Source of the DNA: Escherichia phage vB_EcoM_SA21RB
Reading direction: 5' to 3' (one strand)
Sequence record: OL960580
DNA length: 64,000 nt
Shown: in pieces, positions 2,458 to 64,000 of the stretch
Position numbering within the stretch: position 1 is the first letter of the stretch
Layout of the letters: each line of letters opens with the position of its first letter
Notes under the pieces: model-generated
Told to the model about the DNA's origin: nothing
Database searches by the model: none
What the model saw: only the letters and a program-made list of their open reading frames with translations
Translations under genes and position numbers: made by a program

Positions 2458-4275
2458 CTATTGGCTCATCCATTCTTTACGAAGGTCAGCATTATCTCCC
2501 ATGAGCATTTCAAAAAGCTCTTTCCAGTTCTCAGGAAGTTTAACAACATCATATACTGGGTTTTGAATCATCTCACGATATTCAGATTTTTCCAAAGAGC
2601 CAAGTCCCTTAATATAACGGATGCTATGTTTAGGTAGAGCATCTTTGGCACTCTCATATTCAGTGACTGTATAAAACCATTCTTGTTTTTTACCGACCTG
2701 AGCGATGATTACAGGAGTTTTGACGAAGCGAATTCTTCCTTGTTCAAACAGTTCTGGCCAATTACTAAAAAATCCGAGCAGAGAAGGATAAATGCTCCCT
2801 AGACCATCATGGTCAGCATCAGTCATAATAGCAATATTATGATAATTCAAGTTTTCAGCCTTTTCACCAAGAACTAATCCAGTGATTGCGCAAATATCAA
2901 ACAGTTCTTTGTTTTTAAGCATATCAGCATATGACATACCCCAACTGTTGAGAACTTTACCACGCAATGGATAACCACCATGAAGTTCTTTATCACGAAC
3001 ATCAATAAGATATCCGATAGCAGAATCACCCTCAGTCAAGAAAAGAGTCGTGTCAGCATCTTTACCACAAAGATTCGCTTTAATATGTTTATGAACCTTA
3101 GCTTTAGAAGCCTTTTTAGCTGCTTTAGTTTCTGCTGCTTTTTCTGCCGCCAATTTACGAGCCAAGGCAGCTTCAATAATTGGCATTAAAATTGCTTCAT
3201 TATTTAAAATAGCGCGTGAAATCTTTTTAGCATCAAGCTGAATATGACTACGAATTTCACCAAATGGAGAAGTCAAACGCTCTTTAGTCTGAGAATCAAA
3301 TCGCATGTTTTTCATATCACGAACAAACATAACGATAGTCAAACATTCTTTAACACGTGCTTTAGTTACATCAATTTTGAACTTACGTTTGATTTGTGGA
3401 ATAAGGTCTTCACAAATATCATCCATAACACAGTCAATGTGATGACCACCATTCTTAGTATGAATGTTATTGACGTATGTTAATTGACGAAAACCATCCG
3501 GTGAACGACCAACCGCAATAGAACAATTTTCTTGTTCTTGAACAATAGCATGCTCATCATATTGGCGTGCATATTTCTTAAAATTACCCTGAACCTTTTT
3601 ACCGTTAAAGGTAAATTGAATATCAGGATAAACTACTGCAAGTGTCTGGAGACGATCTAGTGTAATGTCAAGATAAACCTGAGATAGCTCATTAGTTTCA
3701 AATGACATAAAATCAGGAATGAAAGTAACACGAGTTCCTTTCCATTTTCCAGGAATATCTTCCCATGATTTATTTTCCATGCCATTTGAACAACGAACTA
3801 CAATATTATTTTGACCGTCGCCAGTTTCACCGACAAACATCACAGAAAAAATGTTAGTTAAACTAGAACCAACACCGTTCATACCGCCAGTGACGCGTTC
3901 TTTGTCATCACCAAAGTTACCACCTGCTTTTGGAATAGTCCAAGCTGCAACAGGACCAGGAATTTCTTCACCAGTAGGTGTTTTAACCATCGCTTGTGGA
4001 ATACCACGACCGTTATCTTCAACTGTTACTTGATTGTTTTTAATAGTAACATTAATTTTATTCGCGAATTTAAACTTAGTACGAATACCTTCATCTACTG
4101 AGTTATCGATAATTTCATCAATAAGCTTAACAAGACCAGGTACATACTGAACACTTTCCCATTTACCAAACAGAAAGCGCTCATGCATTTCATTAGCAGA
4201 AGAACCAATGTACATGCCGCTACGCTTTTTGATATGTTCAATATCGCTCAGAATTTTAATTTCATTCTTAATCAT
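2458..4275 (-). CDS. 39: DNA topoisomerase II large subunit, single uninterrupted ORF covering the T4 gp39 and gp60 regions
   Basis: ORF track starts at GTG 4278; next codon is ATG 4275 with GAGGA SD, giving 605 aa; GyrB-like ATPase N-terminus; C-terminus NIAIMTDADHDGLGSIYPSLLGFF...RKEWMSQ matches my memory of T4 gp60. Confidence 0.9.
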   Translation of the reverse strand: MIKNEIKILSDIEHIKKRSGMYIGSSANEMHERFLFGKWESVQYVPGLVKLIDEIIDNSVDEGIRTKFKFANKINVTIKNNQVTVEDNGRGIPQAMVKTPTGEEIPGPVAAWTIPKAGGNFGDDKERVTGGMNGVGSSLTNIFSVMFVGETGDGQNNIVVRCSNGMENKSWEDIPGKWKGTRVTFIPDFMSFETNELSQVYLDITLDRLQTLAVVYPDIQFTFNGKKVQGNFKKYARQYDEHAIVQEQENCSIAVGRSPDGFRQLTYVNNIHTKNGGHHIDCVMDDICEDLIPQIKRKFKIDVTKARVKECLTIVMFVRDMKNMRFDSQTKERLTSPFGEIRSHIQLDAKKISRAILNNEAILMPIIEAALARKLAAEKAAETKAAKKASKAKVHKHIKANLCGKDADTTLFLTEGDSAIGYLIDVRDKELHGGYPLRGKVLNSWGMSYADMLKNKELFDICAITGLVLGEKAENLNYHNIAIMTDADHDGLGSIYPSLLGFFSNWPELFEQGRIRFVKTPVIIAQVGKKQEWFYTVTEYESAKDALPKHSIRYIKGLGSLEKSEYREMIQNPVYDVVKLPENWKELFEMLMGDNADLRKEWMSQ

Positions 4276-18105: not shown

Positions 18106-18270
18106 TTACTCTTCTTTTTCTTTAGATTCCTCTTTTTTCTTTTTAGGAATCTGTTCAGGACCTTTATTTACTACAGCGCCTGACGTTGTTCCAGTAGAGA
18201 TATTTTCAGGATTACCACCTGAATCTCCAGCTACCATATCTTCTTTGATAAATTCTTTATATGTTTTCAT
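18106..18270 (-). CDS. small hypothetical protein with MKTYKEFI N-terminus
   Basis: 54-aa ORF below the track cut-off; TAA then ATG of gene 61 two nt later; lysine-rich C-terminus. Confidence 0.4.
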   Translation of the reverse strand: MKTYKEFIKEDMVAGDSGGNPENISTGTTSGAVVNKGPEQIPKKKKEESKEKEE

Positions 18271-23126: not shown

Positions 23127-23151
23127 ATTATAACACAATAAATTTAGGCAT
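23127..23151 (-). promoter_or_regulatory. middle-type (MotA-box) promoter for uvsX
   Basis: minus strand AATGCCTAA (MotA-box-like), 11 nt, TATAAT. Confidence 0.4.
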
Positions 23152-23993
23152 TAATCAACTGCTATTGGATGAATAGCATTAAACTTATGAAACGCTTCTG
23201 ATTTTTCTTTGCGCGAAACACACATGCGAAGAACCTTTAATGGCTCGTCTTCTTCACCCAACGATTTTCGTTTTTCAATATTAGAAGTTTTCCAACGAGC
23301 TTGCTCTGGAAACTCTTTATTGATTTGCTCAAGAGCTCTATTATGTTTTGAATTACTACGAATTGAACTACATCCGCCTGGAGCTTGTGCTTTTCCAGAC
23401 ACAACCAGATATTTGAACAAAGCCAAATGCGGATAACCTTGGTTAATTAAATTGAGAAATGCATACATATCTTCGCATAAATCAATTTTTCCATACCCAA
23501 TTTGTTCTGTAGTAAGTTTCCCGAGGTCATACCAAGTATTCGTGAATCCATATGAATTTTCACGATAATTACCCCAAGATGAAGTAATTTTAAAAATAGG
23601 TAGACGAGCATGACCATGATAATACCCGCAATCCATGGCATCTTCAACGTATTGAATCAATTCATAGAACTGTTCACGAGTTAATTGATTAATTTTATCT
23701 ACGCAGCGACGATCATCTCTCTTTCGCATTGAACTCATACGAATAGTAGTATCATCATCAATCATCCAAATTCGTTGACCTGCATACATATCAGTAATTG
23801 CTTTACGAGTTCCAGCAATTCCATTAACATCATCAGGAATAGTTATAATTTTAGCCCTAGACCCGTAAGCGTCATAATAAGCTTTTTCTTCATGTTCACG
23901 TACTACAATATGAGGTTCATAATCAGTCGGAAACATATCAAGGGCAGAAACTGCCCCTACGCGTTGATAGCTTGGAATTACGAATTGAATCAT
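23151..23993 (-). CDS. DXD-motif glycosyltransferase at the T4 beta-gt locus (not T4 beta-gt)
   Basis: ORF track start is GTG 23999; ATG 23993 overlaps the gene 42 stop (ATGA), giving 280 aa; WMIDDDTT DXD motif; no resemblance to the T4 Bgt sequence I recall. Confidence 0.7.
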   Translation of the reverse strand: MIQFVIPSYQRVGAVSALDMFPTDYEPHIVVREHEEKAYYDAYGSRAKIITIPDDVNGIAGTRKAITDMYAGQRIWMIDDDTTIRMSSMRKRDDRRCVDKINQLTREQFYELIQYVEDAMDCGYYHGHARLPIFKITSSWGNYRENSYGFTNTWYDLGKLTTEQIGYGKIDLCEDMYAFLNLINQGYPHLALFKYLVVSGKAQAPGGCSSIRSNSKHNRALEQINKEFPEQARWKTSNIEKRKSLGEEDEPLKVLRMCVSRKEKSEAFHKFNAIHPIAVD

Positions 23994-24730
23994 TTCCACT
24001 CACCGTTATAATCTTTTTTCGCAATATGAGTTTCGCCAGTTTTCCACCAATGGTCAACCAAATAAAAATGACGGGAATACACATGAAGGCTTCCGACATT
24101 CCATATAATGGAACCTGCTTTATACTGACGAGTTGAATCACCTGCATTCAAATCAGATACTAATTTATCTAGTACATATTTTTGCCATGCATAATCATTA
24201 CGGAATCCGAAGACCACGTCATTTGAACGCATGTTAACCACTGCATTAATTTTCTTATCACGAATCAGGTATTGTACTGTATTAGTACACATGAAATCTG
24301 ACATACCATCTTTATTGTAGTCAAACTGCATGGATGGACGAGTATAAATCATGATACCACGTCGAGAATCAGGATTTTGACCAAGTTCAGCTAAACACAT
24401 GTCATACTGGGCATAGTTATCTTCTGACCAGATGGCCCAACCATAATTCGAGTTAATTTCGCCTTTAGAAGATGCTACCTGCTGCCAAATCTTTGGTGTT
24501 TCACCTGGAATATCTTTAACAAACAGACTTTGAGACTTATACCATTCAAGTTCACGCTGAATGTATTCATCATTAAGAGCGCCAAAAATAAAAGGTTCAT
24601 CTGCTACAAATGATGCACCAATAATTTCAATAGTTTTAACCCCGGTTTTATCAATTACGAAATCTTTTTCCTTTAATGCAAGACCCAAATCAAGACGGAT
24701 TTCTTCAACTGTCATATAATCGTTAATCAT
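23990..24730 (-). CDS. 42: dCMP hydroxymethylase
   Basis: 246 aa; thymidylate-synthase-like fold; length and position as in T4. Confidence 0.93.
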   Translation of the reverse strand: MINDYMTVEEIRLDLGLALKEKDFVIDKTGVKTIEIIGASFVADEPFIFGALNDEYIQRELEWYKSQSLFVKDIPGETPKIWQQVASSKGEINSNYGWAIWSEDNYAQYDMCLAELGQNPDSRRGIMIYTRPSMQFDYNKDGMSDFMCTNTVQYLIRDKKINAVVNMRSNDVVFGFRNDYAWQKYVLDKLVSDLNAGDSTRQYKAGSIIWNVGSLHVYSRHFYLVDHWWKTGETHIAKKDYNGEWK

Positions 24731-35380: not shown

Positions 35381-36583
35381 TTATTTTGTAATAATGTCAA
35401 ACTGCTCTTTAAAGCAGAAGCTTGAATCTTGATGCTGATACAAAAATTCATATGCTTTTTCTCGCTCACGATCATAAAGAGCTCGGTCAGATGACAGTTC
35501 TTTAATACGTTCAAATGTTGATTCCATATCATTTTCATCAAACCAAATGATACCGCTATCATGCGAGGTCAAAGGAGTATTATCAACACGGAATTTTAAA
35601 TTTTCGCCAGTAGATTTCCAAAATACCGGAATTGTTCCACATGCACCAAGCTCGAGATGAGTATATTCTAAAGAACGTTGTAGATATTTTTTATCTAATT
35701 TACTCAGCTGATAACCAAATCCGGATTTACTCATGCGTTCAAGCATTTCGCTATTTACATAACGGTCGAGAATTTGCGTTGGCAAATTAGGAGCAATTTT
35801 AATTTGGTCTACTTGATGAAGACGATAATACTCGTATGGAATTCCTTTTTCTTTAATAGGAATGAATGCTGGAGAACGTTCCAGACCTTCCATAATAGTA
35901 CTTAGTCCTGCAGGTTTAAGATGTTTTTCGTGAAAATCAAACATCTGATAAAAGCCTTTCCATGTAGTAGTACGACCAATCCAACGGTTGATATTCATGT
36001 TAATTTCAGAAACATCTTTCCAGTAAGTTGATCGAACCTTCGCAATATCCATAGGAGGCTGGAAGTTATATACGGTCGGTGCTTCTTCAATATCATCAAA
36101 CAGAGAAACAGTTTCCGGATACCATTCTTTCATCAGAACTTTATTAAAATCACCATTATCAGAATGACTAAAAATAACATCAGCTCGACGAACAGTTTCT
36201 TCTAATCCCAAATTTCGACGTAAAGAAAGAGAAGAATGGTCATGTTGATAAACTACAACACGAACCGAAGGTTTAATGTTATCAATAATTTTTTTATAGT
36301 TATTAATTGTGTCTTCTTCGACTGAAGTAGCAGGAACTGAATTGATAATTAGAATATCACAATCATTTACCAGCTTAAGTGTTTTATCGTATTCTTTTGC
36401 CAATAAAACCGGAATTGAAAATGACTTATAATCATGCGCGCAATTACGAGTAAATGATTTATCTTTAGCATAAACCAAAGTTACTTCATGACCATTTTTA
36501 ATAAACCAATCACGCTGCTCAAGAGAAAATTTAGTTACGCCACAACCTTCAAGACCTCGAGCCATAAAAATGCATACTTTCAT
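35381..36583 (-). CDS. a-gt: alpha-glucosyltransferase (hmC DNA)
   Basis: 400 aa; ...CIFMARGLEGCGVTKFSLEQRDWFIKNGHEVTLVYAKDKSF... matches my memory of T4 Agt. Confidence 0.9.
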   Translation of the reverse strand: MKVCIFMARGLEGCGVTKFSLEQRDWFIKNGHEVTLVYAKDKSFTRNCAHDYKSFSIPVLLAKEYDKTLKLVNDCDILIINSVPATSVEEDTINNYKKIIDNIKPSVRVVVYQHDHSSLSLRRNLGLEETVRRADVIFSHSDNGDFNKVLMKEWYPETVSLFDDIEEAPTVYNFQPPMDIAKVRSTYWKDVSEINMNINRWIGRTTTWKGFYQMFDFHEKHLKPAGLSTIMEGLERSPAFIPIKEKGIPYEYYRLHQVDQIKIAPNLPTQILDRYVNSEMLERMSKSGFGYQLSKLDKKYLQRSLEYTHLELGACGTIPVFWKSTGENLKFRVDNTPLTSHDSGIIWFDENDMESTFERIKELSSDRALYDREREKAYEFLYQHQDSSFCFKEQFDIITK

Positions 36584-59802: not shown

Positions 59803-60264
59803 TCATTGAGTTTTAATTACTGCTTTAGAAGCCTTTCCTGGTAAACGACGACTGTTAATAATTGCCATCCTGCATTGAAGCGACGGGTCTTTGAACTTCG
59901 CATTAGGTTTACAAACTGTAAATCCAAGCCAAAGATTTCCATCTGTGATTTCTAAACGTCCAGGACGATATTCAACCCCATCAATAAAATCCTCGTCAAT
60001 GTCAGGACGAGGAGGCATACTCAGGAATTCATTAACTTCTAAAACATGGTCTTTTATTTTATGGAATAATTCAAAAACGTATGTCTCATCAATCTCCCGT
60101 TGAATTGCACGATCAAGAAGATGTTGAGAATATTTTAGATGAAACGATGAGACCCCTGCTGCTTTTGATGCCTCACGAATCTCATTGTTAATTTGACGAA
60201 ACTCCGACTCAAAGTGACGACGAAGCTTATTTCGACGGATAAAAACTTCTGTGTTGATAGTCAT
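59803..60264 (-). CDS. regB: RegB endoribonuclease
   Basis: 153 aa MTINTEVFIRRNKLRRHFESEF...; length and neighbourhood as in T4. Confidence 0.85.
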   Translation of the reverse strand: MTINTEVFIRRNKLRRHFESEFRQINNEIREASKAAGVSSFHLKYSQHLLDRAIQREIDETYVFELFHKIKDHVLEVNEFLSMPPRPDIDEDFIDGVEYRPGRLEITDGNLWLGFTVCKPNAKFKDPSLQCRMAIINSRRLPGKASKAVIKTQ

Positions 60265-62317: not shown

Positions 62318-62470
62318 TTTCTTCTCTCTAAATTTGGGCCATTCCATGGCGCATGAATTGTCCATTTCTGTATTTACCCATTACCGCACTTGGGCTCGAC
62401 CTTATTACAGGTTGGCGGGAATCCCTCATAGAATCATGAGGTCCAGCTTGTTCCCATATTTCTTATTTGC

Positions 62471-62944
62471 TTATTTGAATGATTTGACGTACTGAATAGA
62501 ACCTTTACTATTCACGAAAGCGATTTTACCATTTTTATTATACATGGTAGCAGTACGCTGATAGCCATAAGTTTGTTTACCAGATTGATAACCAACTAAT
62601 GCGAAATTATCTTCACCCATTTTATTCTGTTTAGCGCGAATACGTTCATGACCGTGTGCCATAAGAACCTTAGCATCACCAGTTGCAATGGATCGACGAG
62701 TTTTTTCATCTTCAACTGTATTAACAAAGTCGTCAAATGAATCAAATTTAGCATGAGATTTATTATACAGTTTTCCATCTACTGCATAATTATATCCTTG
62801 TACATCCATCTCAACTTCTGTACCATCATCCAATACAGCAGTGATTTTCTGACCTTTTTTAAATTTCAAAAGATCAGTAAAAGATTCAGCAATAATTTGA
62901 GAATTAATAGCTGCTTCAGTAATAAATTCTTGATATGTTTTCAT
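62471..62944 (-). CDS. internal-protein-like head protein with capsid targeting sequence
   Basis: 157 aa starting MKTYQEFITEA, the conserved N-terminal targeting sequence of T4 internal proteins; length differs from T4 IPII. Confidence 0.7.
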   Translation of the reverse strand: MKTYQEFITEAAINSQIIAESFTDLLKFKKGQKITAVLDDGTEVEMDVQGYNYAVDGKLYNKSHAKFDSFDDFVNTVEDEKTRRSIATGDAKVLMAHGHERIRAKQNKMGEDNFALVGYQSGKQTYGYQRTATMYNKNGKIAFVNSKGSIQYVKSFK

Positions 62945-62985
62945 ATGTTTCCTTTAAATGTAAATAGGTCTGAGTATTAGCTTTA

Positions 62986-63567
62986 TTAAGAATTACCACG
63001 GGCTGCATTAGCAACGGCGTAAGCGTACTGAACATTAGCGTCTTTAAACGTACCTTTAGAGGTATCTAGTTCTGCCTTAAAGCCGCCTTTAGTCATAACC
63101 TCGGCGAATTCTTTACGGAAAGCCATTGCATCAAGGCTTCTCCATGATGATTTGTGCTTGGCGAATTCAAGACCAGCGTAGTTGACAGCCTTAGCTAATT
63201 TATTATCAATAACCCATTTACCAGATTTAGGCACAAACACCGGGCCTTTCTGTTTAGAGAATAGTTTTAAATTCCAGCGACGAAGGTCACCGTCAGCTTT
63301 AACAAAAGCTGCGTCCAAGTTACTAGCAACAACATCTTGAATATGACCAAATTTAAGCCCATCAACTTCAATATTTAAATCGGTACGCCAGCGAAGTCCT
63401 TCCCAAGCGAAGGCTTTAAAGTCGGAAGCCTTTGTAGCTAAGTACCGTTCAATAGGAGCTGTTTTAGGGTCAAAGCCGTTTCCCGATCGGTAGGTCCACT
63501 CATCTTTATTAATGCCTTTGGCCTTTACTACAGAAGCTTCGGCAATAAATTCTTGATAGGTTTTCAT
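62986..63567 (-). CDS. ipIII: internal protein III
   Basis: 193 aa starting MKTYQEFIAEA; length matches T4 IPIII; directly upstream of e. Confidence 0.7.
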   Translation of the reverse strand: MKTYQEFIAEASVVKAKGINKDEWTYRSGNGFDPKTAPIERYLATKASDFKAFAWEGLRWRTDLNIEVDGLKFGHIQDVVASNLDAAFVKADGDLRRWNLKLFSKQKGPVFVPKSGKWVIDNKLAKAVNYAGLEFAKHKSSWRSLDAMAFRKEFAEVMTKGGFKAELDTSKGTFKDANVQYAYAVANAARGNS

Positions 63568-63627
63568 GTGTATCCTTTAAATGTAATTATTTTAATTAAT
63601 AATTTATCTCTTCAAGTAACTGTGAAT

Positions 63628-63657
63628 ATACTATCACAATTCCAAGAGAAAGTAAAC
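63628..63657 (-). promoter_or_regulatory. T4-type early promoter for the internal protein genes
   Basis: minus strand GTTTAC, 18 nt, TAGTAT between e and ipIII. Confidence 0.5.
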
Positions 63658-63661
63658 GGCT

Positions 63662-64000
<339 letters not shown>

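Follow-up and report, generated by a model that had tools for sequence, protein, structure and literature searches.

Ip4, a common internal protein of T4-like phages and probable injected anti-restriction protein, at the e locus of Escherichia phage vB_EcoM_SA21RB

Introduction

Internal proteins act as the first-minute counter-defence of the phage. Type IV restriction enzymes of the GmrSD kind are inhibited by Ip1, Ip2 and Ip3, a distinct one by each, and there is no cross-protection between Ip2 and Ip3 (Silas et al., Nat Commun 2025, PMC12373910). The GmrSD of strain CT596 is inhibited by IpI*, while the target of T4 IpII is the single-chain GmrSD/BrxU of ECOR21. IpIII, directed against the GmrSD of ECOR17, is required on that strain and is functional without its leader (Srikant et al., eLife 2022, PMC9391042). 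A further leader-bearing protein, Bas37_0260 of phage Bas37 (KarlGJung), inhibits McrBC (HIDEN-SEQ preprint, bioRxiv 10.1101/2025.11.20.689424). In all, four leader-bearing proteins have a known target, and all four are directed against type IV restriction enzymes.

The set of internal proteins differs among phages. T2 and T6 are stated to lack Ip2, and plaque data indicate that Ip3 is missing from both too (PMC12373910). The same authors predicted that all proteins of the two internal-protein loci target GmrSD variants (PMC12373910), and an anti-defence role for every protein of these loci has already been proposed in print. Here we analyse one of the two loci in a 64,000-nucleotide stretch of Escherichia phage vB_EcoM_SA21RB (sequence record OL960580), referred to below as the window. 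A preliminary description of this stretch, made from the sequence alone, had reported two genes with a capsid targeting sequence, one of 193 aa, like T4 IPIII, and one of 157 aa, a length unlike that of T4 IPII, and had put the latter forward as a variant internal protein and a candidate injected anti-defence protein.

Gene order and expression at the e locus

On the minus strand of the window, genes are ordered from the 3′ part of e through a 193-aa open reading frame (ORF) and the 157-aa ORF to a 195-aa ORF encoding a P-loop protein:

63662..64000, minus strand: 3′ part of e (lysozyme); its translation is the C-terminal 112 residues of T4 lysozyme
62986..63567, minus strand: ipIII coding sequence, 193 aa; start MKTYQEFIAEAS
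62471..62944, minus strand: ip4 coding sequence, 157 aa, stop codon included; start MKTYQEFITEAA
61778..62365, minus strand: vs.8 homologue, the 195-aa P-loop protein; conserved right-hand flank of the locus

The e gene runs off the end of the window, and the same gene is annotated e in all related records. Both leader-bearing ORFs were confirmed at the coordinates listed above, on the minus strand, and both open with MKTYQEFI(A/T)EA, as had been noticed in the preliminary description. Their placement upstream of e in that description has to be corrected: with transcription running along the minus strand, e is read first and the two genes lie downstream of it. A six-frame scan of the 64 kb with a loose leader pattern returned only these two ORFs and a 54-aa ORF at 18106..18270, which is taken up in the last section. 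In our judgement, a near-exact match to 8-10 residues of the leader would not be expected by chance in 128,000 positions.

The 193-aa protein is indeed like T4 IPIII, which is also 193 aa long and is identical to it at 179/193 residues (92.7%). It matches PHROG 5341 (E 4e-117), the homologous gene is annotated ipIII in phage PST, and we assign the protein to IpIII. Across the internal-protein region, phage T4_ev240 (LR597657) and the window share 99.3-99.4% identity. On the other flank, the vs.8 homologue aligns with T4 Vs.8 residues about 40-219 and matches PHROG 1488 (E 1e-79). The main vs.8 ORF has 195 aa in the window versus 219 aa in T4; the N-terminus of T4 Vs.8 (MRDSRQPVIRSSPSAVMGKYRNGQF...) is found as a separate 33-aa ORF in another frame (62328..62429, minus strand), and the annotated vs.8 starts vary among RB32, PST and T4_ev240.

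The consensus late promoter TATAAATA was not found on the minus strand between positions 60000 and 64000, so that late expression would depend on read-through or on non-consensus sites, while matches to sigma-70-like promoters were near background (8 found versus 4.9 expected). Transcription of ip4 is probably by read-through from e promoters beyond the window, with non-consensus sites as the alternative. The ip4 ribosome binding site (AAAGGA) is good.

Identity of the 157-aa protein

The 157-aa protein matches Pfam DUF7412 over residues 1-157 of 157 (E 5.7e-96; 319.4 bits against a cut-off of 27) and, also at full length, PHROG 3155, described as 'internal virion protein' (E 6e-102). It is 99% identical both to UniProt Q38388, the Ip4 of phage K3, and to cluster P0001, and the sole significant match for its model among the predicted viral structures of BFVD was again Q38388, Ip4 of Enterobacteria phage K3. 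The homologous gene is named Ip4 or IpIV in RB32, RB14, AR1, Shfl2, PST and S16 (gp71), and the RB32 annotation carries the note 'similar to T2, RB70 Ip4'. From these matches we identify the 157-aa protein as Ip4, an internal protein that already has a name and is very common in T4-like phages.

An identity as a variant of IpII was rejected. With the leader removed, the 157-aa protein had no BLASTP similarity to T4 IpII (E 0.46, 14 bits) and gave E 8.2 against IpIII, and there is no full-length alignment to an IpII variant. Given the Ip4 matches and this want of likeness to IpII and IpIII past the leader, the protein is therefore neither an IpII variant nor new. That the protein is unlike IPII was thus correctly seen, and the IPII length given there, about 100 aa, is right (T4 IpII has 100 aa). 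The proposal of a candidate injected anti-defence protein is reasonable in its functional part, which fits the literature on Ip1-3 and Bas37_0260, but the protein is not an unusual variant, being the common Ip4. Databases and the literature already cover the gene and its name, the leader, the cassette behaviour and the anti-restriction hypothesis.

T4 IpII resembles Ip4 in having the same leader, in occupying the slot downstream of ipIII and in being a small basic protein, but it is 57 residues shorter and unrelated past the leader; T4 has ipII and denV at the position where the window has ip4. Bas37_0260 likewise bears a leader (MKTYQEFIAE), and by analogy Ip4 would belong with it to a class of injected proteins against type IV restriction. 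It was rejected as an Ip4: it has 77 aa, is encoded at the ipI locus and is unrelated in sequence, and the e locus of Bas37 lacks an internal protein.

Leader, processing sites and protein properties

The T4 prohead protease, gp21, recognizes a hydrophobic residue, any residue and Glu, and cuts after the Glu. Two segments at the N-terminus of Ip4 are considered in this light:

62915..62944, minus strand: ip4 codons 1-10, capsid targeting sequence MKTYQEFITE, 9/10 identical to the T4 IpIII leader
62885..62914, minus strand: ip4 codons 11-20, possible second propeptide segment, ending I-A-E before S, with Glu20 as its last residue

T4 IpII and IpIII both begin with MKTYQEFIAEA, and over the first ten residues the IpIII of the window is identical to them and Ip4 agrees at 9/10. 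Mutagenesis of IpIII found Y4 and F7 to be needed for targeting and I8 and E10 for processing (PMC9026906), and the Ip4 leader keeps all four (Y4, F7, I8 and E10). A prohead-protease cut is predicted in Ip4 after Glu10, where the motif is present as I-T-E (residues 8-10) followed by A. A second cut after Glu20 is plausible because Glu20 is nearly invariant, as is Glu10, in the Ip4 family alignment and stands in a gp21-type pattern: the variants of this site in the family (IAE, ISE, MVE, INE, MTE and LSE) keep a hydrophobic residue three before the cut. The predicted mature Ip4 would have 147 or 137 residues and a pI of 9.1 or 9.3, respectively, similar to the 9.6 of IpII and the 9.7 of IpIII.

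In an alignment of 15 sequences of the Ip4 family, 49 positions are invariant, all of them within residues 46-139. The close family keeps His64, His99 and Glu111-Asp112 without exception, but these residues are replaced in the distant members P0015-P0017, and searches of Pfam and NCBIfam gave no enzyme-family match. Because these His and acidic residues are not kept and no enzyme family is matched, the sequences argue for a binding protein rather than an enzyme; an enzymatic Ip4 was rejected on the loss of the conserved His and acidic residues in 35%-identical homologues. An AlphaFold2 model of Ip4 (pLDDT 73, moderate confidence) found no fold relative in the PDB by Foldseek (best E 0.47), and no relatives by fold or sequence were detected outside the protein's own small family. 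Two sets of weaker matches were set aside as noise. One, a PDB sequence match (E 6e-4), was to SAKe6AE, a designed repeat protein; it adds up six repeats that are individually below threshold, all with E above 700. The NCBIfam matches were to a curli synthesis inhibitor (17 bits against a cut-off of 300) and to BOW99_gp33.

Cassette junctions

The locus of ip4, between e and vs.8, is one of two polymorphic internal-protein loci flanked by conserved, repeated 5′ sequences. In the window, the repeat and the segment that differs from T4 are located as follows:

62913..62966, minus strand: 54-nt 5′ module of ip4, in which the leader codons are preceded by 22 nt that include the ribosome binding site AAAGGA
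63536..63589, minus strand: second copy of the 54-nt module, before and into ipIII; a repeat of the ip4 copy
62460..62912, minus strand: segment without a T4 counterpart; T4 has the ipII body and denV here

The two copies of the module are identical at 48/54 positions, and the ip4 copy matches the 5′ end of T4 ipII at 96% identity. RB32 is collinear with the window save for exactly 62967-63535, the ipIII body between the module copies, which is absent from RB32; a gap bounded by the two copies is the pattern expected from recombination between them. In a blastn comparison of the window with T4, homology ends at 62459 and restarts at 62973, and in between only 62913-62966 matches, to the 5′ end of ipII. 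Positions 62460-62972 of the window thereby replace the T4 stretch with denV, ipII and the spacer before ipIII (2669-3546 of the compared T4 piece). The junctions with both RB32 and T4 fall at the 54-nt module, and, judged by these breakpoints, ip4 belongs to the interchangeable cassettes that encode internal proteins in T-even phages. A shuffling mechanism of this kind was reportedly described by Repoila et al. in 1994 (EMBO J 13:4181).

An inverted repeat, TGTGA-TAGTATAT-TCACA, lies between e and ipIII (63621..63638, minus strand) and is found at the same place in Bas37 and Bas40. T4 has a similar intergenic block before ipII (74.5% over 153 nt). Together, the inverted repeat and the T4 block suggest that the repeated upstream module can extend well past 54 nt. 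A tblastn search of the whole 64-kb window gave no denV (E > 3); like T2, the phage may be sensitive to UV, unless the gene is encoded elsewhere in the genome.

Distribution and locus layouts

A tblastn search with the Ip4 core (residues 21-157) found it in 470 of 50,697 phage records. Identity is at least 99% in 291 of them, from phages of Escherichia, Shigella, Yersinia and Citrobacter, and 60-80% in another 159, from phages of Klebsiella, Salmonella and Serratia. Residues 21-157 are 100% identical in the copies of RB14, RB3 and ECML-134, among others. The locus between e and vs.8 occurs in at least five layouts, the first three of which were counted with junction-specific queries:

e directly followed by ip4 (RB32 type): 256 records, the commonest layout
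ipIII followed by ipII (T4 type; ipIII-ipII-denV): 41 records
ipIII followed by ip4 (the window, PST, Shfl2, ECML-134 and others): 13 records
e, a 105-aa leader-bearing ORF, then ip4: Bas40
e, denV and vs.8, with no internal protein at the locus: Bas37

Ip4 is the commonest occupant of the e locus in T4-like phages, and its presence in the window is ordinary; the unusual layout is that of T4, not that of the window. The Ip4 of K3 (Q38388), T2, RB70, RB32, RB14, AR1, Shfl2, PST and S16 is the same protein in the same e/vs.8 position, with the same length and leader. Compared with the other ip4 phages, the only local peculiarity of the window is ipIII directly upstream of ip4 (13 records versus 256 with e). 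The order e, ip4, vs.8 is also found in Salmonella phage S16 (Gelderlandvirus) and Klebsiella phage KpV477 (Jiaodavirus). In Bas40 (FelixPlatter), the additional leader-bearing protein between e and ip4, bas40_0232 (1107-1424; 105 aa; MKTYKEFIAESAAGQRVEGG...), is annotated as hypothetical.

The Ip4 family is small, with 14 clusters at 90% identity among 5.8 billion proteins and 7 representatives at 50% identity among 1.84 billion proteins. Its distant members, P0015-P0017, give full-length profile matches (E 1.6e-22 to 6e-17) and carry a variant leader, MNF..FLNES. P0015, about 35% identical to Ip4 by tblastn and with the leader MNFEQFLNES, is encoded on a metagenomic contig of 2794 bases (Logan ERR14707364) next to three other full-length ORFs with a leader of like kind:

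181-654, 717-1229, 1501-1932 and 2141-2758 of the contig: the four leader-bearing ORFs, whose leaders are MNFEQFLNES, MNFQRFLNEA, MSFKKYLDEQ and MKFSEFLNES

Late-promoter motifs (TATAAATA) stand upstream of the first ORF of this cluster, which represents the internal-protein cassettes of a distant, uncultured T4-like phage. The position of P0015 amid leader-bearing ORFs gives independent support for the Ip4 family as leader-tagged cassettes. P0016 has no match among GenBank phages, so the outer part of the family is known from metagenomes only.

Proposed role of Ip4

By extension from T4 IpI-III, the leader would dock Ip4 into the scaffolding core of the prohead, and the protease gp21 would remove the leader after Glu10 and perhaps ten more residues after Glu20. 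The remaining basic protein of 137-147 residues (pI 9.1-9.3) would stay with the DNA, probably in hundreds of copies, and would be injected along with it. Once in the cell, Ip4 may bind and block one specific modification-dependent (type IV) restriction enzyme, which would otherwise cut DNA containing glucosyl-hydroxymethylcytosine; the most likely target by analogy is a GmrSD-family variant found in Escherichia, Shigella, Yersinia, Klebsiella and Salmonella hosts. We consider it reasonably likely that the whole of this course applies to Ip4, from leader-dependent packaging and gp21 trimming to injection and the blocking of one specific type IV enzyme, and in short Ip4 is probably an injected anti-restriction protein.

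The comparison with T4 IpI* and IpIII has clear bounds. Ip4 would share with them leader-directed packaging, and their loci are likewise polymorphic, but the mature sequences and folds are unrelated, and the targets of Ip1-3 are experimentally defined. Ip4 shares no sequence or fold with any of Ip1-3, and the functional analogy is therefore drawn from leader and locus only. The missing late-promoter consensus and the moderate confidence of the structural model also weigh against the proposal, as does the screen result given below. Our literature search on Ip4, IpIV and DUF7412 found no functional or proteomic paper and no direct evidence for Ip4 in virions or for its injection. In the literature searched, Ip4 is the most widespread internal protein without a target (470 phages, several host genera), and its target, once identified, would probably prove to be a further barrier of clinical relevance for therapeutic phages of the T4 type.

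One alternative accepts that Ip4 is packaged and injected but holds that its target is another early-acting defence or a host function, and not a type IV enzyme. We regard this as unlikely, with observations on both sides. The Ip4 fold is unmatched and unrelated to Ip1-3, and 60-80% identity is kept in phages of Klebsiella, Salmonella and Serratia, with synteny in S16 and KpV477; conservation across genera to this degree suggests a target common to the Enterobacteriaceae rather than a strain-specific nuclease variant. Ip4 (entry 1177/UDP0177) was also among the 200 accessory genes screened in wild E. coli by Silas et al. (PMC12373910), the screen in which the GmrSD target of Ip2 was found, and it is not among the genes with a reported phenotype (200 genes, 20 hosts). 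The absence of a reported phenotype is a weak negative because T2 is reported to carry Ip4 (RB32 annotation note), several phenotypes were masked by O-antigen and the hosts numbered only 20. Against a target of this kind, every leader-bearing protein whose target is known, four in all, acts on a type IV enzyme, and GmrSD-family enzymes are themselves widespread and diverse. In a more specific form, at an equally low probability, Ip4 might be an injected inhibitor of unseen fold directed not at GmrSD but at some other early defence present across Escherichia, Klebsiella, Salmonella, Serratia and Yersinia. Such a shared non-GmrSD target could explain the wide spread of Ip4, the greatest of any e-locus protein, its near-invariance in Tequatrovirus and the absence of a reported phenotype from the screen.

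A second alternative, which we find improbable, is that Ip4 serves mainly as structural filler: as a basic protein associated with the core or the DNA, it would aid head assembly or charge neutralisation and have no specific host target. The pI of 9.1-9.3 predicted for mature Ip4 would suit this role, and so would the properties of the T4 internal proteins, which are present at about 360 copies each and contact DNA phosphates through their lysines; T4 IpIII mutants also have slower head assembly and a smaller burst (PMC9026906). T4 without all three internal proteins is nevertheless viable (PMC9026906), and in Bas37 the e locus encodes no internal protein, though the phage does have leader-bearing proteins at the ipI locus. 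A filler role also gives no reason for 49 positions to be invariant in a defined fold, and the cassette-like presence and absence of ip4 fits an accessory gene of an arms race. That the ip4 ORF encodes no functional packaged protein at all, with its leader a recombination remnant before unrelated or decaying sequence, is very hard to credit: the 54-nt module is a recombination junction and could in principle be fused to anything, but the ORF is full-length and has a good ribosome binding site, residues 21-157 are 100% identical in many independent isolates (at least 99% in 291 records), and the leader is retained down to 35% identity.

DNA glucosylation genes and a leader-like ORF elsewhere in the window

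Three further features of the window are listed:

35381..36583, minus strand: alpha-glucosyltransferase (Pfam AGT, E 2e-237)
23151..23999, minus strand: TAGT-family glycosyltransferase, 282 aa, adjoining a 246-aa ORF at 23990..24730
18106..18270, minus strand: 54-aa ORF with a leader-like start

The 246-aa ORF is presumably at the position of gene 42. T4 has its beta-glucosyltransferase, of 351 aa, at the position of the 282-aa glycosyltransferase. With AGT and a second glycosyltransferase both encoded, the DNA is expected to be glucosylated and thereby a substrate for type IV enzymes, and the gene content indicates that it is probably modified in the manner of T2 and T6. The presence of Ip4, also reported in T2 by the RB32 annotation, is in keeping with glucosylation of the T2/T6 type.

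The 54-aa ORF starts MKTYKEFIKE, a leader resembling the capsid targeting sequence and lying outside both internal-protein loci. It is the homologue of T4 gene 61.1, located just upstream of the primase gene 61, and belongs to PHROG 1823 (function unknown). It could encode a small packaged peptide or be a remnant of the leader module.
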